Of a stretch of 64,000 nucleotides of DNA, positions 327 through 48,809 are shown one piece after another; positions within the stretch are counted from its first letter, which is position 1, and each line of letters starts with the position of its first letter. The stretch lies in the IMG/VR virus record IMGVR_UViG_3300002835_000148. One strand, 5' to 3'. The position numbers and the translations under genes were made by a program. The notes under the pieces are model-generated. The model saw nothing but the letters and a program-made list of their open reading frames with translations, was not told where the DNA came from and did not search any database. This DNA is from a virus.

Positions 327-719
327 ATGACACTAGAAGAGTTTGAAGCGATCTTCAAAGAAAGAGATGAAGCGAAGTCCCCAGATGAGTTGCACGCACA
401 GGTAGTGCGAACCAAACTCCAGAATAACCTGAGCGATCTAGCGAAACTATACAACCCACCAAAGCAAAAAACTCAAGAACAGAACACTCAAGAACAAAAA
501 ACCCACGCTCGGCAGGTAGGCGGCGACCACTACAAAACCAAATCCATTCAGCCGTGGGATGTGATAGATACGCTGCCTCATGCCGAAGCTATCGGATTTT
601 ACAGGGGAAATGCTATAAAATACCTCATGCGAGCAGGAGCTAAGACTGATAATCCAGCGCGACAGGATTACGAGAAGGCACTGCATTACATTGAGAAGTT
701 GCTAGATACCCTACGGTAG
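327..719 (+). CDS. DUF3310-like phage protein
   Basis: GGDHY...GNAIKYLMRAGAK motif recalled from the DUF3310 family. The ORF opens at 312, but GAGGA lies 8 nt before ATG 327. Confidence 0.6.
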   Translation: MTLEEFEAIFKERDEAKSPDELHAQVVRTKLQNNLSDLAKLYNPPKQKTQEQNTQEQKTHARQVGGDHYKTKSIQPWDVIDTLPHAEAIGFYRGNAIKYLMRAGAKTDNPARQDYEKALHYIEKLLDTLR

Positions 720-756
720 CACCCACAAAAGCCTCCCACGAACACAGGAACCCCAC

Positions 757-3234
757 ATGCCCATAGAACGCGCTCCCCAGCAAAGCCCCCTACAGGGTTA
801 CATAGAAGAGAACCTCCGTGCTCAAAGCCCACTGCTGAGTGAGAGCGAAGAAGAGCCTGTAGAGATTATTCTTGGGCCTGAAGACGGTGAGGAGGTATTT
901 TCCATAGAAACTACAGAAATCGAAGCGCCTAGCTTTGATGCTAACCTCGCTGAGTTTATGGATGAGTCAGAGCTTGCAGCCCTGTCTGCGGATTTGCTTG
1001 ATGATTTTAGTAACGACAAGGCAGCGCGTAGAGAGTGGGAAGAGACCTATGTAGACGGGCTGGACTTGCTTGGGTTGAAGCTGGAAGAAAGGACTGAGCC
1101 TTGGAACGGAGCGTGTGGAGTATTCCACCCCATGCTGACAGAAGCGGCTATTCGGTTCCAGAGCGAGATGATCTCAGAGACATTCCCAGCACAAGGGCCA
1201 GTCAAGGCGCGGATCATTGGTAAAACGGATAAAGAGACAGAGCAGGCGGCGGCGCGAGTCGTTGCAGATATGAACTATCAGCTCACTGAGCAGATGCAGG
1301 AGTTTCGGCCAGAGCATGAAAAGATGTTGTGGTCACTGTCTCTCTCGGGCGCTGCGTTCAAGAAGGTGTATTTTGACCCGACACTGAACCGCCCTACGTC
1401 GATGTTTGTGCCAGCGGAGGACATCTACCTGCCCTACGGGTCTAGCAGTGCTAACACTGCTGAGCGCATCACTCACAGCATGCGGAAGACCAAGAACGAG
1501 GTTAAGAAGCTACAGCACAGTGGGTTCTACCGCGACATAGACTTGAACGAGCCGACGAGAGACATAGACCGTATTCAGAAGCGCAAGGACGACGACTCTG
1601 GGTTCAGTGCTATCAACGACGATAGGTATAACTTGCTTGAGATGCAGGTCGAGTTGAATCTGCCGGGGTTTGAAGACGTTGATCCAGAAACAGGTGAAGA
1701 GACAGGTATCGCTCTGCCTTATGTTGTAACCCTCGAAAGGGGTACGGGCGAGGTGCTGGCTGTCAGGAGAAACTATGAAGAGCATGATGATTTTAAGCAG
1801 CCTCGTCAGCATATTGTTCAGTATACGTACATTCCGGGTTTTGGAGCGTATGGATACGGTCTCATTCATCTTATTGGTGGTGCTACCCAGTCAGCTACCT
1901 CGATAATTCGTCAGCTAATAGATGCAGGCACGCTGAGTAACCTGCCGGGTGGGTTCAAGACCACTGGACTACGAGTAAAAGGCGACGACACACCCATAGC
2001 ACCGGGTGAGTTCAGGGATGTGGATATTCCCAGCGGAGCGATGCGTGACAACATCATGCCTCTGCCGTACAAGGAGCCGAGTGCTACGCTGTTCCAGCTA
2101 TTGCAGAACGTAGTGGAGGAGGGCCGCAGGCTAGCAGCCGTGGCTGATGTTAAGCTCAACGAGATGAATGGTGAGGCTCCCGTCGGTACGACGCTGGCGA
2201 TCCTAGAGCGCACTCTGAAGGTTATGTCGGCAGTGCAGGCGCGGGTTCATGCGTCGATGGCTCAGGAGTTCAAGCTGATTGCGGCCCTGATAAGGGACTA
2301 CACCGCCCCTGACTATTCATACCTCCCGGATGACGTAGCCCCTGCTAGTGCTAAAAAGCAGGACTATGAGAAGACTGACATAATCCCAGTATCTGATCCT
2401 AACGCTACGACAATGGCGCAGAGGATCATTCAGTACCAAGCCGCGATACAGCTAGCGCAGATGGCTCCGCAGATTTATAACCTCCCACTGCTACACAGGC
2501 AGATGCTGGACGTTATGGGTATACGTGACGCAGATAAAATCATTGAGGTGGATGATGACCTCAAGCCGACCGATCCTGTTACGGAGAACATGCAGTTAAT
2601 CAAGATGAAACCAGCGAAAGCGTTCATCGAGCAGAACCATGACGCGCACTTGGCTGTGCATAATGCCTTCATACAAGACCCCAAAGTGGCCGCTCAGATG
2701 GGCCAGAATCCTCAAGCGCAGGCTATTATGCAGGCGTTTCAGGCGCATATCGCGGAGCATATCGGGTTCTCGTATAGAAAGCAGATTGAGTTACAGCTAG
2801 GCGTACCTCTACCCCCGCCCGACGAAGATATGCCTCCAGAATTGGAAGCAAGGGTGGCTCCGCTATTGGCACAGGCCGCACAGCAGGCGTTACAGCAGTC
2901 TCAGGCCGAGGCACAGGCGCAACAAGCCCAGCAGCAGGCTCAAGACCCCGTGATGCAGATGCAGATGAAAGAGCTTCAGCTTAAAGAGCAGGAGCTACAG
3001 ATGAAAGCGCAGATTGAGCAGGCCAAAATCCAAGCGGATAAGGAGATTGCCATTATGGACAATCAGACCAAACTCCAGATTCAAGGGGCCAAGGACAAGC
3101 AGGAAGGCTTCAAAGTAGGCTTCGATGCAGTTAAAGAGTACGTCATGAAGGATGGTGAACGCGCACACGGACGTGAGGAAAAGCAGAAAGATCGGGATCA
3201 CTCCGCAGCGCAAGAGCGCGGGAGGTCGGTTTGA
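757..3234 (+). CDS. Portal protein with long Q/A/E/K-rich C-terminal helical extension
   Basis: 825-aa ORF right after the terminase gene. Size, position and core segments (e.g. GAAFKKVYFDP) fit a podovirus portal. The last ~130 aa are Gln/Ala/Glu/Lys-rich and coiled-coil-like. Confidence 0.8.
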   Translation: MPIERAPQQSPLQGYIEENLRAQSPLLSESEEEPVEIILGPEDGEEVFSIETTEIEAPSFDANLAEFMDESELAALSADLLDDFSNDKAARREWEETYVDGLDLLGLKLEERTEPWNGACGVFHPMLTEAAIRFQSEMISETFPAQGPVKARIIGKTDKETEQAAARVVADMNYQLTEQMQEFRPEHEKMLWSLSLSGAAFKKVYFDPTLNRPTSMFVPAEDIYLPYGSSSANTAERITHSMRKTKNEVKKLQHSGFYRDIDLNEPTRDIDRIQKRKDDDSGFSAINDDRYNLLEMQVELNLPGFEDVDPETGEETGIALPYVVTLERGTGEVLAVRRNYEEHDDFKQPRQHIVQYTYIPGFGAYGYGLIHLIGGATQSATSIIRQLIDAGTLSNLPGGFKTTGLRVKGDDTPIAPGEFRDVDIPSGAMRDNIMPLPYKEPSATLFQLLQNVVEEGRRLAAVADVKLNEMNGEAPVGTTLAILERTLKVMSAVQARVHASMAQEFKLIAALIRDYTAPDYSYLPDDVAPASAKKQDYEKTDIIPVSDPNATTMAQRIIQYQAAIQLAQMAPQIYNLPLLHRQMLDVMGIRDADKIIEVDDDLKPTDPVTENMQLIKMKPAKAFIEQNHDAHLAVHNAFIQDPKVAAQMGQNPQAQAIMQAFQAHIAEHIGFSYRKQIELQLGVPLPPPDEDMPPELEARVAPLLAQAAQQALQQSQAEAQAQQAQQQAQDPVMQMQMKELQLKEQELQMKAQIEQAKIQADKEIAIMDNQTKLQIQGAKDKQEGFKVGFDAVKEYVMKDGERAHGREEKQKDRDHSAAQERGRSV

Positions 3235-3661
3235 CTACGCTAAAGGCGGTAAAGTAACACAAGACCCGTATGACTTTTCAGATAGATATAACACACCATT
3301 AACCCCCAAGGAGGAGCGTGCTTTTAAGGAGTGGGCTGGAGAAAAGGTAAAAGACCTGTATGACTATGACCTGAAAGGATTTTGGAAATCTGGTGCAGGC
3401 TTAGATGCTAGAGGGCATGGGTTAGATCAGTACAAAAAGCCTAACCATCCTACTTTTAGCAATCAGAGCTTGTACCACGGGGTTGATGGACAAACGGGCG
3501 GGGCTTGGTCTGAAGCTCCTGATGGGCAGGTTGTGTTTACTCCTTCTAGGCACAATCTTAAAAATATGCCTCTGCCCGTTATGAAACGCTACTTTGATGA
3601 ACGAGAACCGGGCGCGTTGATAAATATAGACCCAGCAACAATAGAGGAAATAAACGAATGA
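3152..3661 (+). CDS. Hypothetical virion-module protein (start uncertain)
   Basis: 169-aa ORF overlapping the portal 3' end by 83 nt, with no alternative start after the portal stop. It contains FDYAKGGKV and the segment YDLKGFW...KKPNHPTFS. Confidence 0.5.
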   Translation: MVNAHTDVRKSRKIGITPQRKSAGGRFDYAKGGKVTQDPYDFSDRYNTPLTPKEERAFKEWAGEKVKDLYDYDLKGFWKSGAGLDARGHGLDQYKKPNHPTFSNQSLYHGVDGQTGGAWSEAPDGQVVFTPSRHNLKNMPLPVMKRYFDEREPGALINIDPATIEEINE

Positions 3662-3843
3662 AAACGCCGGTTGATCTTGTTATAAAAAATCTCGAAGAGG
3701 CTATTTCTTGCCGCAGAGATGCTATTACAAAGGGGCCGATAAGCTCTTTTGAGGAGTATAAATACCTCACCGGGGTCATTGCTGGCCTACAGGCGGCGCT
3801 GGATGCTGTGAAAATAGCGCAGAAACAGTACGAAGAAGATTGA
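3658..3843 (+). CDS. Hypothetical protein (61 aa)
   Basis: ATGA start/stop overlap with the upstream ORF. A hairpin follows its stop. Confidence 0.5.
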   Translation: MKTPVDLVIKNLEEAISCRRDAITKGPISSFEEYKYLTGVIAGLQAALDAVKIAQKQYEED

Positions 3844-3850
3844 TTTTTTG

Positions 3851-3879
3851 TGGGGGATGGAATCAGGCCACATCCCCCA
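3851..3879 (+). terminator. Terminator-like hairpin
   Basis: tgggggatg / catccccca forms a 9-bp stem with an 11-nt loop, followed by ttatatt. The U-tract is only moderate. Confidence 0.4.
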
Positions 3880-3910
3880 TTATATTCTGGCCTGCTGTTA
3901 AGGAGCTTTT

Positions 3911-4300
3911 ATGTCAGTTGCTGATATTGATACGGAAAAAACGCAAGAAAATGCTGAAGCCTTGGCTTCTCGCCTACCCGACCCAGTAGGGTACAAAATG
4001 CTGGTTGTAAAACCAGAAATCGAAGCGCGTTCTGAAGGCGGTATTTTGAAGCCTAAAGAGTTCTTGGATAGAGAAAAAGCTGGTGCAGTAGTAGGGCTTG
4101 TCCTTAAACAAGGCGATCTTTGCTACAAAGATGAGGATAAGTTTCCCTCTGGCCCGTGGTGTAAGGAAGGGGATTTTGTCCTTATCGGAGCCTATAGAGG
4201 CTCTCGTTTTTCCGTAGACGGACAGGAGTTTGTCATTATTAACGACGACATGATCGAAGGTGTCGTTGCCGATCCTCGTGGAATTAACCGCGCATACTAG
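3911..4300 (+). CDS. GroES/Cpn10-like co-chaperonin fold protein
   Basis: KMLVVKPEIEARSEGGILKP...GLVLKQGD...EGDFVLIGAYRGSRFSVDGQEFVIINDDMIEGVV follows the GroES pattern as I recall it: hydrophobic strand, GGI-hydrophobic-x-P (here GGILKP), a G-x-V-x-x-x-G core strand (here the segment ending GLVLKQGD), GD-x-V, and a trailing D-I-hydrophobic motif near the C-terminus (here DDMIEGVV). Confidence 0.6.
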   Translation: MSVADIDTEKTQENAEALASRLPDPVGYKMLVVKPEIEARSEGGILKPKEFLDREKAGAVVGLVLKQGDLCYKDEDKFPSGPWCKEGDFVLIGAYRGSRFSVDGQEFVIINDDMIEGVVADPRGINRAY

Positions 4301-4309
4301 GAGTAAATC

Positions 4310-5281
4310 ATGGCTGAAATAGATGACGATTTTGGTGCTGAAGAGGAAGTCTACGTCGTAGGCTCCAACAAGGACAAACCCAAAGATGAAGTAGAAATCG
4401 AGATTGTCGATGACACTCCTGAAGAGGACAAAGGCAGAAAGCCCTTAAAAGCAGACAAGGAAGAAACGCAGGAAGATGAGCTAGACAAATACTCTGATGG
4501 CGTTCAGAAAAGATTCAACCAGCTTACTCATCGGTATCACGATGAGCGCCGCGCTAAAGAAGCCCTAGAAAAGCAGAATAGCGAAGCGGTAGCACTGGCG
4601 CAGGCCATTCTTGCTGAAAACGAAAAGCTCAAGCAGACCCTTACTTGGGGACAGCAAGAGTACGTTAATGAAGTAAACGCCAAGATTGACTACGCACAGA
4701 AGCTGGCCGAAGATAAGTACCGTCGTGCTTATGAGTCAGGTGATACGGAAGGGGTTTTGGATGCACAAAGAGCGCTACAGGATGTAGCTGTTCAGAAGTC
4801 CAGAATGAGCGATTTTAGACCGCCTATTCCTGAAGTAGAGCAACGTGAAAATAATGCTTTACAACAGCCACAACAACCTGTATATAATCAACCTCATATA
4901 GAGCAGCAGAAACCACAAGCGCCTGTACGCGACCCTAGAGCGGAAGAATGGGCTTCCAAAAATCCTTGGTTCGGTGCAGATGAGGAAATGACCTCCTTGG
5001 CTTATGGCTTGCACTCTAAGCTGGTAAATTCGGGTGTCGATCCGCAGTCAGATGAATACTATGCGACTATCGACAAACGCATCAGGGATGTATTTCCTGA
5101 ATACTTTGGAAAGACGAAAGAAAAGCCGCGAACCTCGTCCCCCGTGGCTCCTGCTGGCAGGTCAACTGCAAGTAGGAAAGTGACGCTAAATCCACATCAA
5201 GTGGCCCTAGCAAAGAAACTCGGCGTTCCATTAGCAGAATACGCTAAACACGTCGCTAAACTGGAGCAGCGCAATGGCTAA
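4310..5281 (+). CDS. Putative scaffolding protein
   Basis: 323 aa with an acidic N-terminus and long charged helical segments. It lies between the portal and capsid genes. Confidence 0.5.
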   Translation: MAEIDDDFGAEEEVYVVGSNKDKPKDEVEIEIVDDTPEEDKGRKPLKADKEETQEDELDKYSDGVQKRFNQLTHRYHDERRAKEALEKQNSEAVALAQAILAENEKLKQTLTWGQQEYVNEVNAKIDYAQKLAEDKYRRAYESGDTEGVLDAQRALQDVAVQKSRMSDFRPPIPEVEQRENNALQQPQQPVYNQPHIEQQKPQAPVRDPRAEEWASKNPWFGADEEMTSLAYGLHSKLVNSGVDPQSDEYYATIDKRIRDVFPEYFGKTKEKPRTSSPVAPAGRSTASRKVTLNPHQVALAKKLGVPLAEYAKHVAKLEQRNG

Positions 5282-39422: not shown

Positions 39423-40298
39423 TTAATCGTCGGTAGCCCAGTCATCCAGTGTGTCTTCTATGGACTCCTCTTTAGCAGGGACTGGCTTGCTCTTGTTGCT
39501 ACGCACCACAGGCTCGGCCTCTTCACGGAATGGCGTCGGCGCTACTGCCACATCTTTTCTTGCACTTGCATCAAGAGTGCCCGGATTGAACACGATAGCT
39601 GCTTCTGCTTCAGGGCTAGCACCCTTCTCTGCTGCTATGGTTAACTCGTCGCCCTTGAGCCTACGCACCGCACGGAAATACAGGCGGGGTGTATCTGAGT
39701 GTTCATCGAAGCGCATTTCAGTCACAACCCGCGTGATTGAATAGTTGTACGCTGCGAGGTGCTTAACATAAGCGTCCAAGCCCATGTGGTCTTCATCGGG
39801 AGCTTTGCCAAACAGTGAAGTAGGTGCAAGCTGCATCTGATACACGTCACTGTTCTCTATGTTGTTGCCCAGCAGAACTGCCAACCTGCGAGAGTATTTG
39901 CAAGCGCGGCTCTTGCCATTAGAACCTGACCCCGATTTGTTCATGGGGCAAGTCTCACAGGTTTTGCCCTGCGGTGCCGCTGACCTTGCGTCAGGCTTTA
40001 TGCCATCATTCGACCAGCAGTCAGGTACGGAAATAGCATTGGGGTCATACAGCTTCGCGTAATAGGCTCGGCTAACATGAGGTGCGGCATTGACGATAAC
40101 TACATCCATCTTGGAGTCAGGGCTACGCGCCGCTTCCTGCCCATTAACGATCATGCGGAATTTGCCACCCTTTATAGAAATGCGCTTGTAGTTCGCATTG
40201 CCCAGCAGTCGTTTAGTAATCTCATCAAGACCTGTGCTGTCAGCTTTGTTGATAACAAGGTCAGTCTCATCGCGGAATAAAGTTACATTAGTAGCCAT
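39423..40298 (-). CDS. Putative ssDNA-binding protein with Cys cluster
   Basis: 291 aa with PDCWSNDG...CETCP...SRACK, and an acidic C-terminal tail DTLDDWATDD like SSB tails. It sits between the primase and helicase genes. Confidence 0.45.
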   Translation of the reverse strand: MATNVTLFRDETDLVINKADSTGLDEITKRLLGNANYKRISIKGGKFRMIVNGQEAARSPDSKMDVVIVNAAPHVSRAYYAKLYDPNAISVPDCWSNDGIKPDARSAAPQGKTCETCPMNKSGSGSNGKSRACKYSRRLAVLLGNNIENSDVYQMQLAPTSLFGKAPDEDHMGLDAYVKHLAAYNYSITRVVTEMRFDEHSDTPRLYFRAVRRLKGDELTIAAEKGASPEAEAAIVFNPGTLDASARKDVAVAPTPFREEAEPVVRSNKSKPVPAKEESIEDTLDDWATDD

Positions 40299-40318
40299 TG
40301 TGTTTTCCTATTTACGTA

Positions 40319-40735
40319 TTAAATTTTCTTGGTAGGGCGGCGAACCATGACAGTGTAGGCACTGTCAACATTCATTCCAGCGGGGTGTGCCTCTGGATGC
40401 TCTTCCAAGAACTCTTTCATTGCAGAACCGCAAATGCGCTTTTCGAGTAGGTACGGTGCGTTATACTTGATGATTACACCGTGTAGTGAACCCCAGTCGT
40501 TTGTCCAATAGCGCGTAGTGGTTGTGCGAATAATCGTCCCGTGCGGTGTGCGTATGCTAGACGCCCCCTGTGTGTTGCACAGAACATTCATCTGGGCGCG
40601 TATGTCCTCCATTCTATCCTTCAATACGGCTTGTTCTTTTTTATGCTTGTCTTCGAGAATCTCCAGTTCTGTTTTTAGTTCTATGTATTCTTTCGCCAAA
40701 AGGCTAGCGTCTACAATTTGCGCTTCATTTTCCAT
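40319..40735 (-). CDS. Hypothetical protein (138 aa)
   Basis: Coiled-coil-like N-terminus. It lies downstream of the promoter at 40784-40812. Confidence 0.5.
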   Translation of the reverse strand: MENEAQIVDASLLAKEYIELKTELEILEDKHKKEQAVLKDRMEDIRAQMNVLCNTQGASSIRTPHGTIIRTTTTRYWTNDWGSLHGVIIKYNAPYLLEKRICGSAMKEFLEEHPEAHPAGMNVDSAYTVMVRRPTKKI

Positions 40736-40758
40736 GTTAACCTCTGTTGTCTAGTTCC

Positions 40759-40776
40759 CACCGAATACCTTCGGTG
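40759..40776 (-). promoter_or_regulatory. 5' stem-loop next to the promoter at 40784-40812
   Basis: Minus strand CACCGAA-GGTA-TTCGGTG, starting 7 nt after the -10 element. Confidence 0.5.
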
Positions 40777-40783
40777 TGCGGGT

Positions 40784-40812
40784 ATTATACTGTTTTTACT
40801 ATGTTTTTACAA
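40784..40812 (-). promoter_or_regulatory. Sigma70-like promoter TTGTAA-N17-TATAAT
   Basis: Read on the minus strand. The -35 element overlaps the helicase stop codon. Confidence 0.55.
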
Positions 40813-43293
40813 GGCACCTCCCAAAAAGCTCTGATACATTTCCAACAAACTTTTTTGCGCCAGTGTGCGGCTGGCTAGCGCTTTGTACAATTTGGTCTCA
40901 ACAGGACTGCTGCATAGGTGGACTACCAAACAAGGATTCTTCTGCCCCGATCTATGCACCCGTGCATTGGCCTGTAAATATGTCTCCGCCGATGTCGTTG
41001 GGGAGAACCATACTACCGTATTAGCTGCTGTCAGTGTAACCCCATGTGCCGCCGCCTGTGGCTGAATGACTAGCACCTGTGGGTTTTTATCAGTCTGAAA
41101 CTCTTTGAAAATAACCGTGCGCTTTTTAGCCGACACATCACCGTGTATCGCTGCTGTGGTTATGCCATGCTTATTCAGGTAGCGCTCGACCAAATCTATC
41201 GAGTGCCGAAAGGCGCAAAACACTAGCGTTTTATGCGAGACTTGCTGAACAATGTCCAGCAATTCTTCCAGTTTGTTAGAGCAGTCAAACTCAACAACCT
41301 CTCCAGTGTCAGAATACACTGATCCACAATTATGCACAATAAGCGGCCCTTGGTGCCCAGCTACAACAAACCTAGCCCTGGGTCCGCAGTTAAGTAAGTC
41401 GTAAGTTTTTTGCTCTTGTCTGGAGGCACCATCAGGGCTATTTCTACGGGCCAACCCGCCTTTAGGCGTCTTCTCAATGTGATAGGCTTGATCCCATACG
41501 CCTTCGCCGCTTGTGCTATGGGCATTAAACCTTTCGGGGTGTCTATGAGTACATTCGTCCGTTTGTTCAGCCCCTGCTGTTCTGCGGTAGCCCATCGGCA
41601 ATTTTCTGGGGAATATGGGCCATTGTTGTCTATTCGATCCAGTGTGAGCCCCTTCTTGTATACCGGCCCCATATCTAACCAAAACGCCGCGAATGAATAC
41701 CGCCAACTTTCGCATACTGCTATACCCCGTGCCCCGTAATTTTTGTAGTCCTTGTTGGAGGGATTGTGACAACGGAGTATCATGTTTTGATAATTGGAAT
41801 ACGCCTGATGGTAACTCATTTTGTGCGTTTCGTTCCCGTGGTGGCAGCCACAACTCCTTGGGTATTTTCTGTGCTTCGCCCGCAAGTATTGGCTCTCCCT
41901 TTCCGTAATGTTCCCACAATCGCAAAGACAAAGCCATCTGGCTTTTTTTGCTTTCCCAACTGATGTTCCGGCCCTTGCTATCACAGTCAGGTAGCCGAAC
42001 TTTCGCTGCATCAAATCTATAGCCGGATTTGCCATATAGTATATCTCCTGCTGTGCGCCAACCTTGTGTAGTAAGGACATTATGATCTAGTGTCATAGAT
42101 ACCCCGTAGCAGTCCTCTACTTGCTTAACTCCTCGGAATATGACTCCACCATGATCTACCCATTCCTCTCCATCCCAGACTTTATGCTTGGCTGATACGT
42201 CTTGTATAGGTATCCAGCCTATATCCGTGAGTACCGGAGTATTATACACTATGCACGAAATTTGCAATAGCTTCCCCATCTGCACAGCGGCATTTACCGC
42301 TGATATATCCGTCCCCGCCGCCTGAATGAGCTGCTCTTTCCTCAGCTTATCATAGTATTTTTTCTGCTGCGCTGTCATAGGTATTTGCCTATCTGAATAC
42401 AGCATATCCGGTAAGTCTAGGCAGTCTTCTGTCTTGTATCGAATGGCTGGCTGAAGCGCTTCATACACAATATCTTGAGCTTCTGGGCGCGGAACGTATT
42501 TGAACTGCGACGTTTTCAGCATCACTTTGTCTTTCCATGCTCCAGCATATCCCGGCACAGCGCTTGGATTCACTAGCCTAGCCTGACCATACGCATCTTC
42601 TGGTGACTGCGCTGCGGGTGTTCCTGTCAATAGCCAGAGCCATGTGTCTGCCTTTATCAATGAGTTTAGCGTCTTCCATCGCCTTGTCTTTACATTCTTT
42701 AGCGCAGTGCTCTCGTCACACACAATCAGGTCAAAGCCACCCTGCAATATCTCATCGCGCACCACTTCAATCCCGTCATAGTTGATGATGACAAAATCGG
42801 CCTTACCCTTTATAACGGCGATGCGCTGCTCTTTCGTGCCGTGGGCTATACCCACTCGCCTGTGCATAACTGTATTGAATAGGTCTGACCGCCATGCACA
42901 ATCCATGATAGACAGTGGGCATACGATCAACACGCGCTTTATTGCTTTGGTGTTCAGCAGGTAGTCTGCGGCCCACGCTACAGCAGAGGTCTTCCCCGTC
43001 CCCATCGCATTAAGGCAAAACGCTCTCCTGTGCAATGTCAGAAACGATGCAGTGTCCCTCTGATGGTCAAACGGGCTGTATATTCCGGGCCAGTCGTACT
43101 TACCAAGGATAGGTGACAGCACCTTTTTGAAGCCTAGGTTTTTCAGAATCATGGCATTGCCCAGATTCCAATGCACAGCAACATCGTGCACTCCATGCCC
43201 TTCTTTTATAACCTTGGACTTTTGAATCACCTGAGTGATTTTGTCTGGGTTCTTTGTACGCACAACAAGTGCGCTATTTGCTAATACTTCCAT
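40807..43293 (-). CDS. SNF2/DEAD-like helicase interrupted by an intein
   Basis: Motifs LNAMGTGKT, DESTALKN, LTGTP and QANARVHRSGQ are present. The extein junction is ...KLLQIS|C...VHN|CGSVY. Confidence 0.85.
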   Translation of the reverse strand: MEVLANSALVVRTKNPDKITQVIQKSKVIKEGHGVHDVAVHWNLGNAMILKNLGFKKVLSPILGKYDWPGIYSPFDHQRDTASFLTLHRRAFCLNAMGTGKTSAVAWAADYLLNTKAIKRVLIVCPLSIMDCAWRSDLFNTVMHRRVGIAHGTKEQRIAVIKGKADFVIINYDGIEVVRDEILQGGFDLIVCDESTALKNVKTRRWKTLNSLIKADTWLWLLTGTPAAQSPEDAYGQARLVNPSAVPGYAGAWKDKVMLKTSQFKYVPRPEAQDIVYEALQPAIRYKTEDCLDLPDMLYSDRQIPMTAQQKKYYDKLRKEQLIQAAGTDISAVNAAVQMGKLLQISCIVYNTPVLTDIGWIPIQDVSAKHKVWDGEEWVDHGGVIFRGVKQVEDCYGVSMTLDHNVLTTQGWRTAGDILYGKSGYRFDAAKVRLPDCDSKGRNISWESKKSQMALSLRLWEHYGKGEPILAGEAQKIPKELWLPPRERNAQNELPSGVFQLSKHDTPLSQSLQQGLQKLRGTGYSSMRKLAVFIRGVLVRYGAGIQEGAHTGSNRQQWPIFPRKLPMGYRRTAGAEQTDECTHRHPERFNAHSTSGEGVWDQAYHIEKTPKGGLARRNSPDGASRQEQKTYDLLNCGPRARFVVAGHQGPLIVHNCGSVYSDTGEVVEFDCSNKLEELLDIVQQVSHKTLVFCAFRHSIDLVERYLNKHGITTAAIHGDVSAKKRTVIFKEFQTDKNPQVLVIQPQAAAHGVTLTAANTVVWFSPTTSAETYLQANARVHRSGQKNPCLVVHLCSSPVETKLYKALASRTLAQKSLLEMYQSFLGGAL
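41329..42255 (-). mobile_element. Intein (309 codons) in the SNF2 helicase
   Basis: Begins CIVYNTPVL (block A). TLDHNVLT is block B. It ends YDLLNCGPRARFVVAGHQGPLIVHN, followed by a +1 Cys. Confidence 0.85.
41361..42035 (-). CDS. Homing-endonuclease-like protein nested in the helicase intein, in a different frame
   Basis: AGGAGA lies 8 nt before ATG 42035; the ORF track opens at 42080. The protein has a Zn-ribbon CLCDCG...SCGC, the core YKNYGARGIAVCESW...LDRIDNNGPYSPENCRWAT and a C-terminal HTH-like segment. Confidence 0.75.
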   Translation of the reverse strand: MANPAIDLMQRKFGYLTVIARAGTSVGKAKKARWLCLCDCGNITERESQYLRAKHRKYPRSCGCHHGNETHKMSYHQAYSNYQNMILRCHNPSNKDYKNYGARGIAVCESWRYSFAAFWLDMGPVYKKGLTLDRIDNNGPYSPENCRWATAEQQGLNKRTNVLIDTPKGLMPIAQAAKAYGIKPITLRRRLKAGWPVEIALMVPPDKSKKLTTYLTADPGLGLL

Positions 43294-43347
43294 AATTTCA
43301 CCACATCGCTTAGGGAGCGACGACCCATGTTGTTTCGCTAGATACTT

Positions 43348-43584
43348 TTAGAGAATGTCGTAGGTGTCATCCTCACTTGATATTTTAAGAACATCCTGCA
43401 CATCGGGTTTGATAACATCGCCGCTGTGCACCCACTCCTTGATCTGTTTGTAGCAGTGCTTCCTCTCCCGACGGGCTACCACAAAGGTCATGTTTATCAA
43501 CTCATCCAAGAACCGATCTATGACCTCTTGCGGCATCCCAGCGTTTCGTGCTAACTGCTTAACGCTTTTAGTTGTTACTCTCAT
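43348..43584 (-). CDS. Hypothetical protein (78 aa)
   Basis: ATGA-type overlap with the upstream ORF. No motif recognised. Confidence 0.5.
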   Translation of the reverse strand: MRVTTKSVKQLARNAGMPQEVIDRFLDELINMTFVVARRERKHCYKQIKEWVHSGDVIKPDVQDVLKISSEDDTYDIL

Positions 43585-43874
43585 TTTTTCTTTTTCGGAC
43601 TGTCATAAGTTGCTTTGGGTTTGTGGTTGCTAGCTCTAGCATAGCTACGGTTGTCATGCTTAGAGGTTAAAAAATATCCGTCTGCATTAGAGCCACCTTT
43701 GGACAAAGCCTTTTTATGCGCTATGTCTTTGCCGGTTCTATCCACACCTTCTTTATCCAGTTTATACCTAGCACGCTGACGGGCCAGCTTAGCTTGAAGG
43801 ACACCGCCGTCTTTTTTCTGCCGTGCCTTTTCATTCTGCCAATCACGCTTGTAGTCTCTCACCTTAGAGGGCAT
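43581..43874 (-). CDS. Small basic protein, possible HNH-like
   Basis: GKDIAHKKALSKGGSN...HDN resembles a minimal HNH motif, tentatively. The protein is Lys/Arg-rich. Confidence 0.35.
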   Translation of the reverse strand: MPSKVRDYKRDWQNEKARQKKDGGVLQAKLARQRARYKLDKEGVDRTGKDIAHKKALSKGGSNADGYFLTSKHDNRSYARASNHKPKATYDSPKKKK

Positions 43875-43883
43875 CGCCTTCTC

Positions 43884-44564
43884 CTATCTATTTCTGCCGT
43901 TATGCTCACAAGATAGTGCTTCGCACCACTTGCCACATAAACCATTCGGTTTTGGGTTGAACACGCCTGTTTCATAAGACATTTCTCGTTGTGCAAGTAT
44001 ACCATGCAGGTCAGAGAAAATAGTGAAAGCCTCGTCACGGGTGTAGACACTCTGTATGCGGTCATTAGGCACGATGAACCACAGCATAGCCTTCACTTTT
44101 TCCAACTGCGGAAACTTAGCGAACATACACGCTGCCATCAGCGCCAACTGCTTTATGTCTGCATAACGAGAGCTTTTGCCTGTCTTGTAGTCCAGCACCC
44201 AGCCTGTGCTGTCATTTATGATAATCAGGTCGGCTATGCCTCTAAACCATACGTCCTTGTCAAAGAAGTCACAGGCTACCAGCTTACCGTCCTCTTTCTT
44301 CAACCCCATTTTGAGTTCGCAATGCTTATCACCGGGGAATCTCTTTAGGCTGTCTAGGTAAGACTGTATATGAGAAAACTTGGGCAGGAGTGGCTTGTCA
44401 TCGCGTACGTACTCTTCCGCTGCGGTATGCAGCTCTTTTCCGTAAAGTGTAGCCTCAGTGTCAGTGAATACTACTTCTTTGGTGATCTTCTCCGCCTCGT
44501 ACTTACGAGGGCATAGCTCATACAATTTTATTGATGAGAAACTCCATGCTCCGGGTTTTTTCAT
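43884..44564 (-). CDS. PD-(D/E)XK exonuclease, Cas4/RecB-like
   Basis: An N-terminal Cys (YELCPRKY), GIADLIII...LDYKTGK, QLALMA and the C-terminal cluster CGKWCEALSC. Confidence 0.8.
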   Translation of the reverse strand: MKKPGAWSFSSIKLYELCPRKYEAEKITKEVVFTDTEATLYGKELHTAAEEYVRDDKPLLPKFSHIQSYLDSLKRFPGDKHCELKMGLKKEDGKLVACDFFDKDVWFRGIADLIIINDSTGWVLDYKTGKSSRYADIKQLALMAACMFAKFPQLEKVKAMLWFIVPNDRIQSVYTRDEAFTIFSDLHGILAQREMSYETGVFNPKPNGLCGKWCEALSCEHNGRNR

Positions 44565-44575
44565 CTGTACCTTCC

Positions 44576-47272
44576 TTAAAAATAACTCTCTAACTTCTTC
44601 ATTTTGAATGATAAATTATCTCCGAACCCGCACTCGGCGTCCAGCGGTATGTTGGGCAGCCACTCTGGAGGTCTACGAAGCTCCTCTACAATAAACTTCA
44701 TAGCTTCTAGTGATTGCTCGGTCGGTACAATACCGTAGAGCGCGTCATGGATAGTCAGCCCGACAGGGTACTTCTTGTGTACTCTTACCATAGCCTCGCC
44801 CATCACGCACCTAGCCAATGCCTGAATGATATTCTGAAAGCATTTGGCGGCGTGTATATGCACTGGCCCTTTGCGCGTTTTGTACACCCATTGTAGCCTG
44901 TTCGAGCTATCCATAGAGGGTGTCAGGTCATTATAGGTCATATACAAATTGGAAGGTAGCCTGATGCCCCGCGCTCCGATAACTTTCAGCGATAGCGCTC
45001 CTAAACCAATGTCGTATTCTTCATTTTGTGCAATCGCGTACAGCGCGTTACCTGCATCATGCCAAGCTTTTTTGACCATATAGTAATCATCTCGGTAAAT
45101 TTCTACGACTTTTTTAGCAAATGTTTCTCCAATGTCCCTACCGGATAGCATCTTGATTTGCTCACGTAATTTCACATGGCCTGTGCCATAGATCAAACTT
45201 AACTGACAGTTATGTACAATTATTGGGCCGGAATCAGTCAAGATCGTAAATCTGTTCCTCGGCCCGGCGCAAAGCAAGTCGTAAACGGGCAATCTCCGCC
45301 TCAAGCTCACTGATTTGGCGCTTGTTTCTGGTATTCTCCGCTCTGGAGATAAACCTAATGTTGCCCGGTTCGTAATTACCATTATTGTCGATGCGATCCA
45401 TGTCAAACTCTGGAACATCCCAACCATCAAGTGTTTGCGCGTGCGCGAGAAACTGCGCTTTATCCATGCGCCATAGTGCGTACACCGTGATGCCTCGGCC
45501 CCCATAGTTTTTATAGTTGCCGTCTTTGGTGTTATGGCAGCGGTTAATTGCTGCGGCGATTCGGTTAAGCAACCTACGCCGATGCTGGTCATTAGGCATG
45601 GCTTTGGTGTAAGCCCAGAACCTTTTAGTCCGACCTGCTGTAAGCCCGCATTGATGGCATCTAGTGCTTTTGAAGTCTTTGAAATTATGCTTATCCACAG
45701 TGTATTCAGGGAGGCCGCAGTCGCATTGGACAATAAGCGCGGCAACTCCCCCTCGCGGGCCTTGAATGTAGCCTGTAACGGTAAGTTTGCCGCTCCTATA
45801 CCCAATGCTTGGGAGAGGATGGACGCATCTGAAACCACTGATTGACTTTCCAACCACTGAGTCCCTGACCACACTAGATGATCCGGTGTTAACCAACTCC
45901 CGCAAAGACTCAATGTTTCTTTGTAACCTTTCGACACTAATCCTTGGTGGCATACCCACTCCTCCCCATCCCATACTTTGTCTGACAAAGAAACCGCTTC
46001 AATCGGCTTCCATCCTGAGTAGCATAATACTAGAGTTCCCTCGGCAATACAAGTTTTTCCAACGAAGCGCTGCTCGTCTGTGACATCTGCATATCTTATG
46101 TTAAACGCTGATGCAGCAAAGTCTTTATACAGGTCAAGCCCATCGCCCAGCATCTCTAGCTTATCCATCTGCCCAGCAAAGTACAGGCCCACACGCAGCT
46201 CGATGTTAGACAAGTCAGCACCCACTATGCTATAGCCCAAAGGCGCGACGATAGCCTTCTTTAGCGGAGAAGTGCGAGGCAAATTCTGCAGATTGATTGA
46301 GTCCACTGCCGACCAGCGCCCTGTGATCGCGCCATAGTATTTTAGAGGTACAGGTAGCGAACCACTCTCTTCTGCTATGCGAATGAAGCGCTCTGTGCGG
46401 GTTTCTTCGAGTGTGCTCTTGACGCCTAGCCTAGCAGCAACTACAGCCTGTACACTGAAATTATCATGCTCCAGCAGTGCTTTGAACTCTGCATCACTCT
46501 TGGCAAAAGCGTAGGCAATCTTGCCCGTTCGCGGGCTTACTTTCACCGGAGGTGTAACACCAAAACTTTTAAGCACTTCCGCCAGCTTCGGGTTCGACAT
46601 CAAGTCTTCTTTAGCAATACCGCTCTCTATAAGCAGGATTGTTTTCCTACCACGCACATCCGTTAAGTGCTCGTGTAACAGTGCGGTGTCTAGTTGAAAT
46701 TGTGGCTTTGTGTGCATCTTGATCGTCATGTCGATCAACGCAATTTCCGACTTGATAAATGCTGGGGCTAGTCGCTTGAACAACTCATAGGTTAGCTCTA
46801 CGTCATTCTTGCAGTATTCCCCATACGCCTTTAACTCTAACTCTGCGAAATCTGCACGGCGTTTACCCATAGCAAGGACAACTTCTTCACCCTTTACCCC
46901 TAGCTCGTAGCGTTCAGCTAGCGCTTTGAGCGATCCACCTGCGTCAACACCATGTACGGCGCGGGCCATAGACAGAGTATCGAGTATCAGCTTAGGGTGA
47001 ATCCCGAACCGCCACGCTAGAATAGACGCATCAAACAGCGCATTGTGAGCCAGCATAAACGCATTGGCCCAGTCAAAACAACCAAGCCAGTCCCTAATTT
47101 CTTCATGCGTTCCGCTAAACCATGCTGCCGGTTCATCGTTCTTCTTTACTGCAACGCCGATAGTTTCATATCGTTCGTCATCTACGTAGCTCTGAGTCGT
47201 TACGTCTTTGCGTGATAAGCTGTACTCTTTGCTATAGTAGGTTTCTATATCCACCGTAAACATATTTAGCAT
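44576..47272 (-). CDS. Family A DNA polymerase with 3'-5' exonuclease domain, interrupted by an intein
   Basis: Exo motifs VDIET, HNALFD and YCKNDV. Pol motif A is DLSNIELRV. Motif B, RFVGKT|intein|CQLSLIYG, is split by the intein. Motif C is TIHDAL. Confidence 0.9.
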   Translation of the reverse strand: MLNMFTVDIETYYSKEYSLSRKDVTTQSYVDDERYETIGVAVKKNDEPAAWFSGTHEEIRDWLGCFDWANAFMLAHNALFDASILAWRFGIHPKLILDTLSMARAVHGVDAGGSLKALAERYELGVKGEEVVLAMGKRRADFAELELKAYGEYCKNDVELTYELFKRLAPAFIKSEIALIDMTIKMHTKPQFQLDTALLHEHLTDVRGRKTILLIESGIAKEDLMSNPKLAEVLKSFGVTPPVKVSPRTGKIAYAFAKSDAEFKALLEHDNFSVQAVVAARLGVKSTLEETRTERFIRIAEESGSLPVPLKYYGAITGRWSAVDSINLQNLPRTSPLKKAIVAPLGYSIVGADLSNIELRVGLYFAGQMDKLEMLGDGLDLYKDFAASAFNIRYADVTDEQRFVGKTCIAEGTLVLCYSGWKPIEAVSLSDKVWDGEEWVCHQGLVSKGYKETLSLCGSWLTPDHLVWSGTQWLESQSVVSDASILSQALGIGAANLPLQATFKAREGELPRLLSNATAASLNTLWISIISKTSKALDAINAGLQQVGLKGSGLTPKPCLMTSIGVGCLTESPQQLTAAITPKTATIKTMGAEASRCTHYGAWIKRSFSRTRKHLMVGMFQSLTWIASTIMVITNRATLGLSPERRIPETSAKSVSLRRRLPVYDLLCAGPRNRFTILTDSGPIIVHNCQLSLIYGTGHVKLREQIKMLSGRDIGETFAKKVVEIYRDDYYMVKKAWHDAGNALYAIAQNEEYDIGLGALSLKVIGARGIRLPSNLYMTYNDLTPSMDSSNRLQWVYKTRKGPVHIHAAKCFQNIIQALARCVMGEAMVRVHKKYPVGLTIHDALYGIVPTEQSLEAMKFIVEELRRPPEWLPNIPLDAECGFGDNLSFKMKKLESYF
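45209..46051 (-). mobile_element. Intein (281 codons) in DNA polymerase motif B
   Basis: Begins CIAEGTLVL. Block B is LTPDHLV. It ends VYDLLCAGPRNRFTILTDSGPIIVHN, followed by a +1 Cys. Confidence 0.85.
45234..45953 (-). CDS. Homing-endonuclease-like protein nested in the polymerase intein, in a different frame
   Basis: GGAGGAG lies 5 nt before ATG 45953; the ORF track opens at 45974. The protein has QCDCG...CHQCG and the core YKNYGGRGITV...MDRIDNNGNYEPGN. Confidence 0.75.
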   Translation of the reverse strand: MPPRISVERLQRNIESLRELVNTGSSSVVRDSVVGKSISGFRCVHPLPSIGYRSGKLTVTGYIQGPRGGVAALIVQCDCGLPEYTVDKHNFKDFKSTRCHQCGLTAGRTKRFWAYTKAMPNDQHRRRLLNRIAAAINRCHNTKDGNYKNYGGRGITVYALWRMDKAQFLAHAQTLDGWDVPEFDMDRIDNNGNYEPGNIRFISRAENTRNKRQISELEAEIARLRLALRRAEEQIYDLD

Positions 47273-47760
47273 ATGCCTTTCTCCTGCATAAACGCCCTAA
47301 CTATTGCTTCCTTTTCTGGGCTTAATCTGGCGCAATTAAAGCCTTCTTTGTCTTTGTGCCTTACTCGCCAAATGTAATGATGCGCGGTCATTGTCTTCAC
47401 ACCCATGAGGACGCCTAATTCCCATGCCATAGTTTTAGCATAGTTGCGATTTCGCGCCTGTGTTTGTCGTGTAGCCCAACAGCAATTATCAGGGCTGTAC
47501 CCTTTGTTTACATCAACTCTTTCTAGTGTGTGCTTGCTCGTAGGGCGTCGCCCCATATCCGATAAGAAATTTTCGTAGAGCAACCATTCAGCTATGACAG
47601 AGATTCCCCGCCCCCCGTAGTGCTTATAATCTACGGCTCTAGTGTTGAAACACCTATTTTTCATCATTTGCCATGAGCGATATTCTGGAGTAGCCACGCG
47701 CCGCCCATTTACGTAGCGCACTTCCCCGCACGCTTTTACAGCCATTACTTTATCAGGCAT
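47266..47760 (-). CDS. Free-standing homing-endonuclease-like protein, paralogue of the two nested ones
   Basis: YKHYGGRGISVIAEW...FLSDMG...LERVDVNKGYSPDNCCWAT shares its core with the ORFs at 41361 and 45234. It overlaps the polymerase start by 7 nt. Confidence 0.7.
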   Translation of the reverse strand: MPDKVMAVKACGEVRYVNGRRVATPEYRSWQMMKNRCFNTRAVDYKHYGGRGISVIAEWLLYENFLSDMGRRPTSKHTLERVDVNKGYSPDNCCWATRQTQARNRNYAKTMAWELGVLMGVKTMTAHHYIWRVRHKDKEGFNCARLSPEKEAIVRAFMQEKGIC

Positions 47761-48067
47761 CCTCCCTCCAATTTTTTAATAGCCTTTGCAGGTCTTCTTT
47801 CAGTGTGCCTAAGCCTGCTTCATTAACGACGAGAGCGCACCCACCAGCAGTGCTTATTCTTTTTAGCTCTCGCTCCTGCAACGCCGTGGTCTTCCCCTTT
47901 CCAGCTTTGCACTCTATTCCAAAAAAATACCCATTCAAACAACCGCATATATCAGGCACCCCACTTTTTCCATAGCCGCCCGTAACAGGGCTAAAATGAT
48001 ATGCTCCCAACTCATCCAAGATTTTCTTAACTACTGCTTTTACTTTAGCCTCTGGCGTAGTTGCCAT
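47753..48067 (-). CDS. VRR-NUC domain nuclease
   Basis: GVPDICGCL...FGIECKAGKGKTTALQ matches the D...ExK core recalled for VRR-NUC. Confidence 0.75.
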   Translation of the reverse strand: MATTPEAKVKAVVKKILDELGAYHFSPVTGGYGKSGVPDICGCLNGYFFGIECKAGKGKTTALQERELKRISTAGGCALVVNEAGLGTLKEDLQRLLKNWREDA

Positions 48068-48081
48068 TCACTCCTCCTTTG

Positions 48082-48312
48082 TTAACCATCACCGCTACCC
48101 TCGCCATCACCGTAGCCAGCACCACTGCCACTACCGTGGCTGAAACTACTACCTATGTCAGTGCCAAAGCCCTCTACCGCTTCAAAGTACCATTCAGGGC
48201 AATCGTTTACACCATCGCCAGCACCAGCGCCATTACCGATACCCCACCCGTGACCACGCCCTGAGTAGTGGCCTGAGTTATCTCCTTCGTTAGTGAGTTT
48301 ATAGGGTGGCAT
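48082..48312 (-). CDS. Gly-rich small protein G5 (76 aa)
   Basis: MPPYKLTNEGDNSGHYSGRGHGWGIGNG... Its ATG is embedded in the last codons of G4 and preceded by GGGAGGTGGGAAG. Confidence 0.55.
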   Translation of the reverse strand: MPPYKLTNEGDNSGHYSGRGHGWGIGNGAGAGDGVNDCPEWYFEAVEGFGTDIGSSFSHGSGSGAGYGDGEGSGDG

Positions 48313-48550
48313 CTTCCCACCTCCCGCTGTAACCGCCCTCACCATCGCCATAACCCGCACCGCCCCCCTCCCCCTCGCCACTGCCCTCGCCAGCGCAGCC
48401 TCCAATACCCCCATCCGCGCCGTCCCCACCGCCAGTGCTATCACCAGCGCCAGCATCATATCCGTAAGTAGATAGATCGCCCCAGCCCCTACCCTGCCCT
48501 GTGCCGAGGCATAAGTTATCTCCATTGTTAGTGAATCTATAGGTCAACAT
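48299..48550 (-). CDS. Gly-rich small protein G4 (83 aa)
   Basis: MLTYRFTNNGDNL...GYSGRWEDATL, with the same junction architecture as G5. Confidence 0.55.
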   Translation of the reverse strand: MLTYRFTNNGDNLCLGTGQGRGWGDLSTYGYDAGAGDSTGGGDGADGGIGGCAGEGSGEGEGGGAGYGDGEGGYSGRWEDATL

Positions 48551-48809
48551 CTTCCCACCTCCCGTTGTAGCCACCCTCACCTGCGCCTCCGCCGGAGCCA
48601 TCTCCATCACCATAGCCATCGGCATAGCTGTCTTCATTGACCTCACAATCACCATTCCCAAAACCGTCGCCAGAGCCACTATACCTGCCGTGACCTATTC
48701 TAACGTGGCTGAGAGTAGCAGCATTACCGGAGCCGTAACCCCATCCCCAACAGCGACCTGAGTCGTGGCCTGAGCTATCTCCTCCGTTAGTAAGTTTATA
48801 GGTCAACAT
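48537..48809 (-). CDS. Gly-rich small protein G3 (90 aa)
   Basis: MLTYKLTNGGDSSGH...GGYNGRWEDVDL. The start lies 14 nt inside G2. Confidence 0.55.
   Translation of the reverse strand: MLTYKLTNGGDSSGHDSGRCWGWGYGSGNAATLSHVRIGHGRYSGSGDGFGNGDCEVNEDSYADGYGDGDGSGGGAGEGGYNGRWEDVDL

Follow-up and report, generated by a model that had tools for sequence, protein, structure and literature searches.

A phage SNF2-type helicase intein with an endonuclease-family gene overprinted in a shifted reading frame

Introduction

In a 64,000-nt stretch of viral DNA (IMG/VR record IMGVR_UViG_3300002835_000148; the whole stretch is called the window below), the gene for an SNF2-type helicase holds an intein-like insertion whose middle is open in two reading frames. 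Does the second frame carry a real gene, and what keeps the helicase frame open across it? The original prediction, made from the letters alone, described a continuous 828-codon helicase open reading frame (ORF), intein hallmarks at residues 347-655, a featureless helicase-frame middle and, in a shifted frame, a well-formed 224-aa protein with its own AGGAGA-N8-ATG, taken for a homing endonuclease. It further proposed that both frames are under selection and that no such intein had been described. The structural claims held in our analysis; those on selection, enzyme identity and precedent had to be revised. We consider it likely that the locus is a mobile class-1 mini-intein, set in a conserved site of the helicase, in which a homing-endonuclease-type gene is overprinted in the +1 frame and no endonuclease domain lies in frame.

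Results

The helicase gene carries a class-1 intein

The helicase ORF (Table 1) is stop-free straight through the intein. Its product is an SNF2-type helicase, with Pfam matches to SNF2-rel_dom (1.2e-17, residues 96-333) and Helicase_C (3.1e-20, residues 674-783) and a PHROGs match to phrog_62 DNA helicase (1.5e-101). In the ~340 residues between the two Pfam domains, matches were limited to short intein-N-terminal stretches. We aligned the protein with three helicases lacking an intein, from Rhizobium phage RHph_TM3_14A, Pseudomonas phage Rollin and Acinetobacter phage MD-2021a. An exact 309-residue insertion, residues 347-655, lies between ...KLLQIS and CGSVY; it is absent from all three proteins, and its flanks align residue for residue. 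At this site the intein-less helicases read ...KLLQ[IVL][SA] / [TLC]G[WA]... (the slash marks the insertion point). The insertion starts at Cys347 (CIVYNTPVL), contains the block B motif TxxH as T-L-D-H (intein residues 55-58, nt 42082-42093), whose His is nearly invariant in the family alignment, and ends in PLIVHN followed by Cys656, giving the terminal His-Asn and the Cys extein residue of an intein.

We utilized AlphaFold2 (AF2), with an 11-sequence alignment, to predict the structure of the helicase-frame insert. The model showed beta-rich, confident ends, with pLDDT (predicted local distance difference test) values of 81-85 at ~residues 5-90 and 69-82 over the last ~35, and a middle of ~190 residues with pLDDT of only 25-48. 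When the model was compared with the PDB by Foldseek, each of the top 31 matches was an intein, a split intein or a bacterial intein-like (Hint) splicing domain. The Ssp DnaB mini-intein 6frg ranked first (E=4.9e-4, probability 1.0); gp41-1, Npu DnaE and the DnaX mini-intein were also among them. Twenty-one other inteins have homologous Hint ends, and their C-terminal blocks are 51-82% identical to that of the helicase intein. For the helicase-frame middle, Pfam, PHROGs and NCBIfam returned no family or domain match, known endonuclease domains included. These results support a bona fide class-1 intein in the helicase, of which splicing itself is predicted.

Two other arrangements were considered and rejected. 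For a group I intron carrying an endonuclease ORF, no intron core or other RNA family was matched in Rfam at E<=1 within 40700-47900, and the host frame is open and encodes Hint blocks. For a fractured gene or split intein, the helicase ORF runs unbroken through its 828 codons, with neither a stop after the N-intein nor a restart before the C-intein. A megablast search of GenBank phages with the helicase gene found nothing.

A complete gene lies in the +1 frame of the intein

The shifted ORF spans 41361..42080 in full (239 aa) and encodes 224 aa from the ATG at 42035, beginning MANPAIDL. Its offset from the helicase start (43293-42080=1213) places it in the +1 frame of the helicase. The 224-aa product matched phrog_374, named "HNH endonuclease", at 6.6e-60 in PHROGs, and had >7,800 homologues at E<=1e-10 in a metagenome protein collection. 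AF2 modeled it with a mean pLDDT of 89.8, compared with <50 for the helicase-frame middle. Among the predicted viral proteins of BFVD, the model had 131 structural matches at E<=1e-3, with names such as HNH endonuclease, HTH homing endonuclease, AP2-domain protein and PVL ORF-50-like. From the N terminus, the predicted layout runs through a three-stranded sheet, a CxC...CxC zinc ribbon and a strand-strand-helix core to a helix-turn-helix at the C terminus. The core, with the motif LDRIDNNG..NCRWAT..Q..N, consists in the AF2 model of strands 131-134 and 146-149 and helix 151-156, a beta-beta-alpha layout whose profile link to the PDB is weak.

The ORF overlaps the folded Hint halves by ~50 nt per side, its first ~17 codons lying on Hint-N and its last ~18 on block F. 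In these overlaps, residues conserved in the two frames coincide (helicase RLPD, ORF GYLT). At the aligned start position, 12 of 20 family members have ATG, GTG or TTG. A scan of bacterial and archaeal genome contigs recovered only three distant free-standing relatives and gave no clue to the host. Overall, the data support a complete, separately initiated endonuclease-family gene in another frame in the middle of the intein.

Protein-level selection acts on one frame and stop avoidance on the other

We compared 20 non-redundant cassettes, meaning the Hint blocks with the +1 ORF, by their mean pairwise nucleotide differences at each codon position of the helicase frame. Differences at positions 1, 2 and 3 were 0.447, 0.367 and 0.678 in Hint-N (residues 1-56) and 0.628, 0.436 and 0.399 in the middle; in blocks F and G position 3 was again the highest (0.61-0.65). 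The most variable helicase position thus changes from 3 in both Hint halves (0.60-0.68) to 1, which is position 3 of the ORF, in the middle (0.59-0.63), and the change in periodicity coincides with the ATG (intein residue ~74) at one end and with block F at the other. Upstream of the ATG, the 17 codons open in the +1 frame show helicase-frame periodicity (0.227/0.572/0.37), which favors independent initiation over a frameshift fusion. Over the same DNA, mean pairwise amino-acid identity was 0.46 in the ORF frame versus 0.23 in the helicase frame. Ratios of nonsynonymous to synonymous substitution rates (dN/dS, Nei-Gojobori) were about 0.1 in the ORF frame, ranging over 0.07-0.33 for pairs with unsaturated dS, versus an apparent 1.3-3.0 in the helicase frame; no close relative was found, and these are family-level pairs, with dS saturated for several.

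A helicase-frame stop arises only where a T-ending ORF codon precedes a codon starting with AA, AG or GA. In the embedded genes, 0 of 1065 codons in such risky contexts ended in T, compared with 21% in other contexts. The free-standing relatives showed 26% (20% in a GC-matched subset) and 27.5%, respectively, and the window gene 0/60 and 42/164. Synonymous shuffling of the 224-aa ORF introduced a mean of 11.3 helicase-frame stops when its own codon pool was used, or 13.4 with extein codon usage, and none of 20,000 shuffles was stop-free, so that the helicase frame is open far beyond chance, as had been estimated. The amino-acid and disorder-promoting composition of the helicase-frame linker did not differ from that of the same frame in free-standing homologues (p=0.11), leaving stop avoidance as the only detectable helicase-frame constraint in the middle. 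Protein-level purifying selection in the ~570-nt middle is confined to the endonuclease frame. The proposal of selection on both frames therefore stands for the endonuclease frame as protein-level purifying selection, and for the helicase frame in this middle it is reduced to the avoidance of stops.

The arrangement recurs across loci and assemblies

We scanned IMG/VR with a four-sequence profile and took the 80 closest loci. At 18 of them, shifting one base upstream from the homologue gives a frame with zero stops that lies inside a host ORF of 900-1278 aa; at the remaining 62, which are free-standing relatives, that frame held 1-37 stops. The other alternative frame was open in 0/80. Together with APSE-1 (L001), Caulobacter phage GB2A (L002) and Shewanella phage SFCi1 (L003), the same cassette of Hint and +1 ORF is present at 21 other loci. 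In all 22 members, the Hint N and C blocks are homologous to those of the window, Cys comes first, and HN followed by Cys stands at the end. The host gene is an SNF2 helicase interrupted at the same site (the window, L004, L005 and L006), a family-A DNA polymerase, or a third protein (L017, L018 and L035). For this third host protein of ~640 aa (L017, 2303-5107; L018; L035, 2231-5104), no Pfam or PHROG match was found.

In GenBank phages, the best tblastn matches of the 224-aa protein fall within DNA polymerase genes, namely those of APSE phages, Caulobacter phages GB2A, RW, RLK and KcrB, and Shewanella phage SFCi1. There the homologue is offset by +1 from the annotated coding sequence, which stays open through it. 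Three independent JGI metagenome contigs (L096-L098) match window positions 40087-42521 without gaps at 99.73-100% identity, which excludes paired indel errors, a scenario named in the original prediction as one that would refute it. Pairwise identities of the Hint parts and of the ORFs are correlated (r=0.42, Mantel p=2e-4). Identity to the window ORF is 58-65% for helicase-resident ORFs versus 39-47% for polymerase-resident ones. These findings fit a cassette whose parts evolve together, the inner protein following its target site.

One of these helicases, L006 (host ORF 1217-4744), has an extra insertion of ~300 residues near its N-terminal ATPase motifs (residues ~122-424), with a weak LAGLIDADG_3 match (E=0.0016). 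This insertion is probably another intein of the same helicase gene, of the conventional kind.

Table 1 Features of the helicase and polymerase loci in the window. Slashes mark splice or insertion junctions.
Feature	Position	Strand	Basis or remark
SNF2-family helicase precursor ORF	40807..43293	minus	828 codons plus stop; Pfam and phrog_62; spliced product would be 519 aa
Class-1 intein, 309 residues (helicase residues 347-655), Cys1 to His-Asn	41329..42255	minus	junction alignment and Hint homology
N-terminal splicing (Hint) half, intein residues ~1-90, with Cys1 and block B TLDH	41986..42255	minus	AF2, Foldseek, codon periodicity
Helicase-frame linker, ~190 codons, stop-free, predicted disordered, entirely overprinted by the +1 ORF	41416..41985	minus	pLDDT 25-48
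C-terminal splicing half, blocks F and G, ending ...TYDLLNCGPRARFVVAGHQGPLIVHN	41329..41415	minus	AF2 and homology to other inteins
+1 extein nucleophile Cys656	41326..41328	minus	junction alignment; Cys after HN in 22/22 family members
Intein-less extein junction, ...AAACTGCTGCAAATTTCG / TGTGGATCAGTGTAT...		coding strand	
Overprinted +1-frame gene, 224 aa plus stop	41361..42035	minus	phrog_374, AF2, dN/dS
Shine-Dalgarno-like AGGAGA, 8 nt upstream of the ATG at 42033-42035	42044..42049	minus	read from sequence
Family-A DNA polymerase gene	44576-47272	minus	Pfam DNA_pol_A
Second intein, same Hint family, polymerase motif B (RFVGKT/C...HN/CQLSLIYG)	45209..46051	minus	tblastn with helicase intein halves
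Overprinted homologue in second intein, +2 frame relative to polymerase, longest ATG ORF	45234..45974	minus	phrog_374 4.8e-32
Free-standing third homologue, 164 aa, directly upstream of polymerase start, 7-nt overlap	47266..47760	minus	phrog_374 5.5e-36

A second intein and a third paralogue lie in the same window

The replication module of the window holds three copies of the phrog_374-type family (Table 1). One is overprinted in a second intein, found in the DNA polymerase gene, which is 45% and 53% identical to the two halves of the helicase intein (tblastn). Here the inner ORF lies in the +2 frame: between intein residues ~62 and ~250 the variable codon position moves to polymerase position 2, as a +2 ORF predicts. 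Frame-specific constraint starts only at intein residue ~62-70, and the real start of the +2 ORF is probably further downstream than the longest-ATG call. The polymerase frame has no stops through the window's intein and the third frame has 26. Six IMG/VR contigs (L090-L095) share the +2 arrangement; all have a polymerase frame with 0 stops and a third frame with 6-27. Of the synonymous shuffles of the +2 ORF, 0.2% were stop-free.

Elsewhere in the window, 48082-48679 (minus strand) contains two overlapping ORFs of 147 and 126 aa in different frames. Both products are Gly/Asp/Ala-rich and share GGGKMxxY[KR][LF]TNxGDN, after which come GxGxG repeats; the pair resembles small paralogous genes in tandem.

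Relatives include mini, decayed, fractured and misannotated forms

The same Hint family also occurs as a mini-intein, with a linker of ~15 residues at the APSE-type polymerase site (P0131 and P0132), and in split form, in polymerase genes that a GIY-YIG endonuclease gene has fractured (L099, 1633-5650; L101, 130-3797). The N-intein and C-intein of the latter carry the motifs WDGxEWV, TPDH and YDIxxAGPRNRF. The fractured-gene proteins P0132 and P0134 also carry a downstream mini-intein of this Hint family.

In L023, L093 and L095, the inner ORF is broken or truncated and the host frame is still open. L023 (host ORF 608-4444) encodes an APSE-like polymerase with two inteins of the Hint family, at residues 450-735 and 894-1199. 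In the second of these, the +1 ORF is broken into 52 and 169 codons and the polymerase frame is open; the inner gene appears to be decaying.

Existing annotations render the inner ORF in several ways. In APSE-1 (NC_000935.1, locus 2501-3139), RefSeq annotates the 'HNH endonuclease' P46 from an internal Met, covering 141 of ~216 codons; alignment with the family places the start at a GTG, locus position 2501. The inner ORFs of GB2A and SFCi1 have no annotation at all. Gene calls on the three contigs that match the window (L096-L098) give the 239-aa inner ORF and a separate 170-aa Helicase_C fragment, and miss the intein.

Discussion

Direct support covers the continuous host ORF, the exact junctions, the Hint ends with a disordered middle, the conserved ORF led by a Shine-Dalgarno sequence, the frame-specific selection, the stop avoidance, and the conservation across loci and assemblies. 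In the mechanism that we propose, the helicase frame would be translated straight through into an 828-aa precursor. The two Hint halves, joined by a disordered linker of ~190 residues, would fold together and splice by way of Cys1, TxxH, the terminal His-Asn and Cys+1, yielding the 519-aa helicase. Internal initiation on the same mRNA, at the AGGAGA-N8-ATG (42035), would give the 224-aa DNA-binding protein, which presumably cleaves DNA. During co-infection, this protein would target intein-less helicase alleles, and repair would copy the whole cassette into them. Across the linker, the helicase frame is constrained only against stops, with T-ending ORF codons never placed before AA-, AG- or GA-starting codons.

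Cis-splicing, internal initiation and translation of the 224-aa protein, cleavage and homing are predicted steps, drawn from what is established for inteins and for homing endonucleases. Some observations weigh against this mechanism. In 8 of the 20 family members the aligned start position holds no initiation codon, six of these having an ATG five codons upstream, and a promoter/terminator scan gave no promoter-like signal upstream of the internal ORF above the shuffled expectation. Independent initiation could be dispensed with if programmed ribosomal frameshifting from the helicase into the +1 frame produced the endonuclease as an extein-HintN-endonuclease fusion. We regard such a fusion as very improbable. 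The 17 open codons upstream of the ATG make it physically possible, but their substitution pattern follows the helicase frame, not the +1 frame; moreover, a strong AGGAGA-N8-ATG is present, most relatives keep an initiation codon at the aligned position, and no slippery motif was noticed, though no formal search for one was made. There is next to no likelihood that the shifted ORF is open by chance or is a dead relic, with the helicase-frame middle left over from an in-frame endonuclease domain that has decayed. Middle columns of the host frame are moderately conserved (majority-residue fractions 0.3-0.5), as that idea would have it, but this conservation is a by-product of the overlap, pairwise identity being higher in the ORF frame; variation is greatest at ORF position 3, the ORF-frame dN/dS is low, and it is the ORF product that has the phrog_374 match and the confident model. 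The chance is just as negligible that paired indel errors in assembly threw an in-frame endonuclease domain out of frame, given the three independent gap-free metagenome assemblies, the same +1 offset at 21 other loci from unrelated samples and cultured phages, and a helicase frame held open through a specific synonymous-codon bias.

The weakest link in the proposed mechanism is the nuclease chemistry, and here too the evidence partly runs against us. The name 'HNH' comes to this family solely from PHROG and RefSeq labels. Searches of the 224-aa protein in Pfam and NCBIfam detected no nuclease domain, only weak helix-turn-helix matches, and a Foldseek comparison of its model with the PDB yielded no solved structure at E<=1e-3 and did not recover the I-HmuI structure 1u3e. 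The sole PDB sequence link is a weak profile match to I-HmuI (E=0.29), with a motif-level alignment over GLxLD[HR]xD...N.RW.T. I-HmuI has a DNA-binding beta-sheet part at its N terminus, then a beta-beta-alpha core, and ends in a helix-turn-helix. In this weak alignment, its general-base His75 falls on Arg134, which is invariant in 69 aligned family members, and its metal ligand Asn96 on a nearly invariant Gln154, with an invariant Asn157 three residues on. Arg also occupies the general-base position in both paralogues within the window, and the catalytic general-base His expected of an HNH enzyme is thus not present. On these results, the family is at most a putative member of the catalytic HNH class, and we infer the label "endonuclease" from family names and from the mobile-element-like distribution of the genes. 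Of the predicted homing-endonuclease gene, what stands is a separately initiated member of an endonuclease family; its nuclease activity is presumed, and the canonical HNH catalytic His is an invariant Arg in this family.

The 224-aa protein could accordingly be a catalytically dead HNH derivative that only binds specific DNA sequences, as a regulator or as a partner of another nuclease, the intein being kept mainly by vertical descent or collaborative homing. This would suit the Arg and Gln substitutions, the lack of nuclease-domain and solved-structure matches, and the several BFVD neighbors named 'AP2 domain' or 'DNA-binding domain protein'. We nevertheless find it distinctly unlikely. The family has the distribution typical of homing endonuclease genes, with three paralogues in one phage replication module and thousands of free-standing phage copies; the ORF sits in homologous inteins at different sites (DNA polymerase, SNF2 helicase and a third host protein) and is only sporadically present in host genes; it is under strong purifying selection; members with decayed ORFs exist (L023, L093 and L095), as a homing cycle predicts; and the residue equivalences drawn from so weak an alignment are insecure. 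More tentatively, and as a possibility that we hold to be somewhat improbable, the overprinted protein may be either a catalytic homing-endonuclease variant or a non-cleaving mobility factor, with an I-HmuI-like scaffold and a family-wide Arg/Gln in place of the HNH His/Asn, and the Hint family may then preserve a series from mini-intein through overprinted (+1/+2) intein to fractured gene. If this series were real, overprinting would be a long-lived, selectable alternative to gene breakage, upheld by a simple synonymous-codon rule, and the Hint family would lend itself well to testing the gene-breaking model of how split inteins arose.

The locus under the proposed mechanism is a natural case of dual coding, in which ~0.7 kb specifies two proteins, one frame being under normal protein selection and the other under a pure constraint to stay open. 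The codon rule that keeps the host frame open can be read directly: no T-ending codon before AA, AG or GA. Inteins with an out-of-frame endonuclease may be less rare than thought, since a widespread family occurs in this form in phage DNA polymerases and helicases, including those of the well-studied APSE phages. Gene callers split the helicase or shorten the inner ORF, as with APSE-1 P46, and such inteins are therefore systematically missed or mislabeled as mini or decaying. The occurrence of one Hint family as mini-intein, overprinted intein and fractured gene also offers material for testing how endonucleases enter inteins and how split inteins originate.

Comparison with known systems

On its AF2 secondary structure, the 224-aa protein would resemble the HNH homing (nicking) endonucleases of the I-HmuI type (1u3e) in modular order. 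It differs in the weakness of the match, in having Arg for the His and Gln for Asn96, and in its extra CxC...CxC zinc ribbon.

An out-of-frame endonuclease gene within an intein is an already published concept, and the statement in the original prediction that no such intein had been described is out of date. Actinobacteriophage inteins carry an endonuclease VII-like gene in frame 3, or antisense LAGLIDADG or Vsr-like genes (Gosselin, Arsenault & Gogarten, bioRxiv 10.1101/2025.01.02.630785), and in a cyanobacterial dnaX intein a +2 ORF encodes a LAGLIDADG enzyme (Phillips et al., bioRxiv 10.64898/2026.09.14.751524, crediting Gorbalenya 1998). The authors of these 2025-2026 preprints call the architecture rare and predict that it is under-detected; non-breaking entry of an endonuclease into a mini-intein has been proposed as an off-track of Dassa's model (10.1101/2025.01.02.630785). 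Like these inteins, that of the window has its splicing blocks in the extein frame, a stop-free, disordered host-frame middle, and a well-folding endonuclease-family ORF on the same strand in another frame; the proposed origin, a free-standing endonuclease gene invading a mini-intein, is also shared. The low dN/dS of the endonuclease frame and the inflated value of the host frame form the signature also reported for the dnaX intein (10.64898/2026.09.14.751524). The window differs in its endonuclease family (phrog_374, with an I-HmuI-like layout and Arg for the catalytic His), in its hosts (family-A DNA polymerases of Gram-negative-type phages and an SNF2 helicase), in its clear Shine-Dalgarno sequence, in the presence of +1 and +2 versions in one genome, and in ORF ends that overlap the folded Hint halves by ~50 nt per side.

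Fractured genes (Dassa et al. 2009, PMC2677866) share with the window an endonuclease 3' end that overlaps the C-terminal intein half, and L099 and L101 show exactly that published arrangement, with split intein halves flanking a free-standing endonuclease gene. In the window, by contrast, the host frame has no stop or restart, the contiguous intein would splice in cis, and the endonuclease gene is overprinted rather than intercalated. The ShiLan insertion (PMC11855218) is likewise a stop-free host-frame insertion that hides an endonuclease-family ORF in another frame, but it has no splicing domain and stays in the protein, whereas complete Hint halves flank the ORF here.

The closest annotated counterpart is the intein of the APSE-1 DNA polymerase P45 with its P46. 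Its splicing blocks are homologous to those of the window (55% identity), its ORF is homologous (40%) and has the same +1 offset; the host gene and the insertion site differ. P46 has been annotated inside the polymerase intein region since the first APSE-1 annotation, and our literature search found no paper that treats APSE P46 or the phrog_374 family as the out-of-frame endonuclease of an intein. What is new here is the endonuclease family, the host range including APSE, the start led by a Shine-Dalgarno sequence, the coexistence of +1 and +2 forms in one genome, and the explicit codon rule. The state seen in the window is the non-breaking outcome of an endonuclease gene entering a mini-intein.

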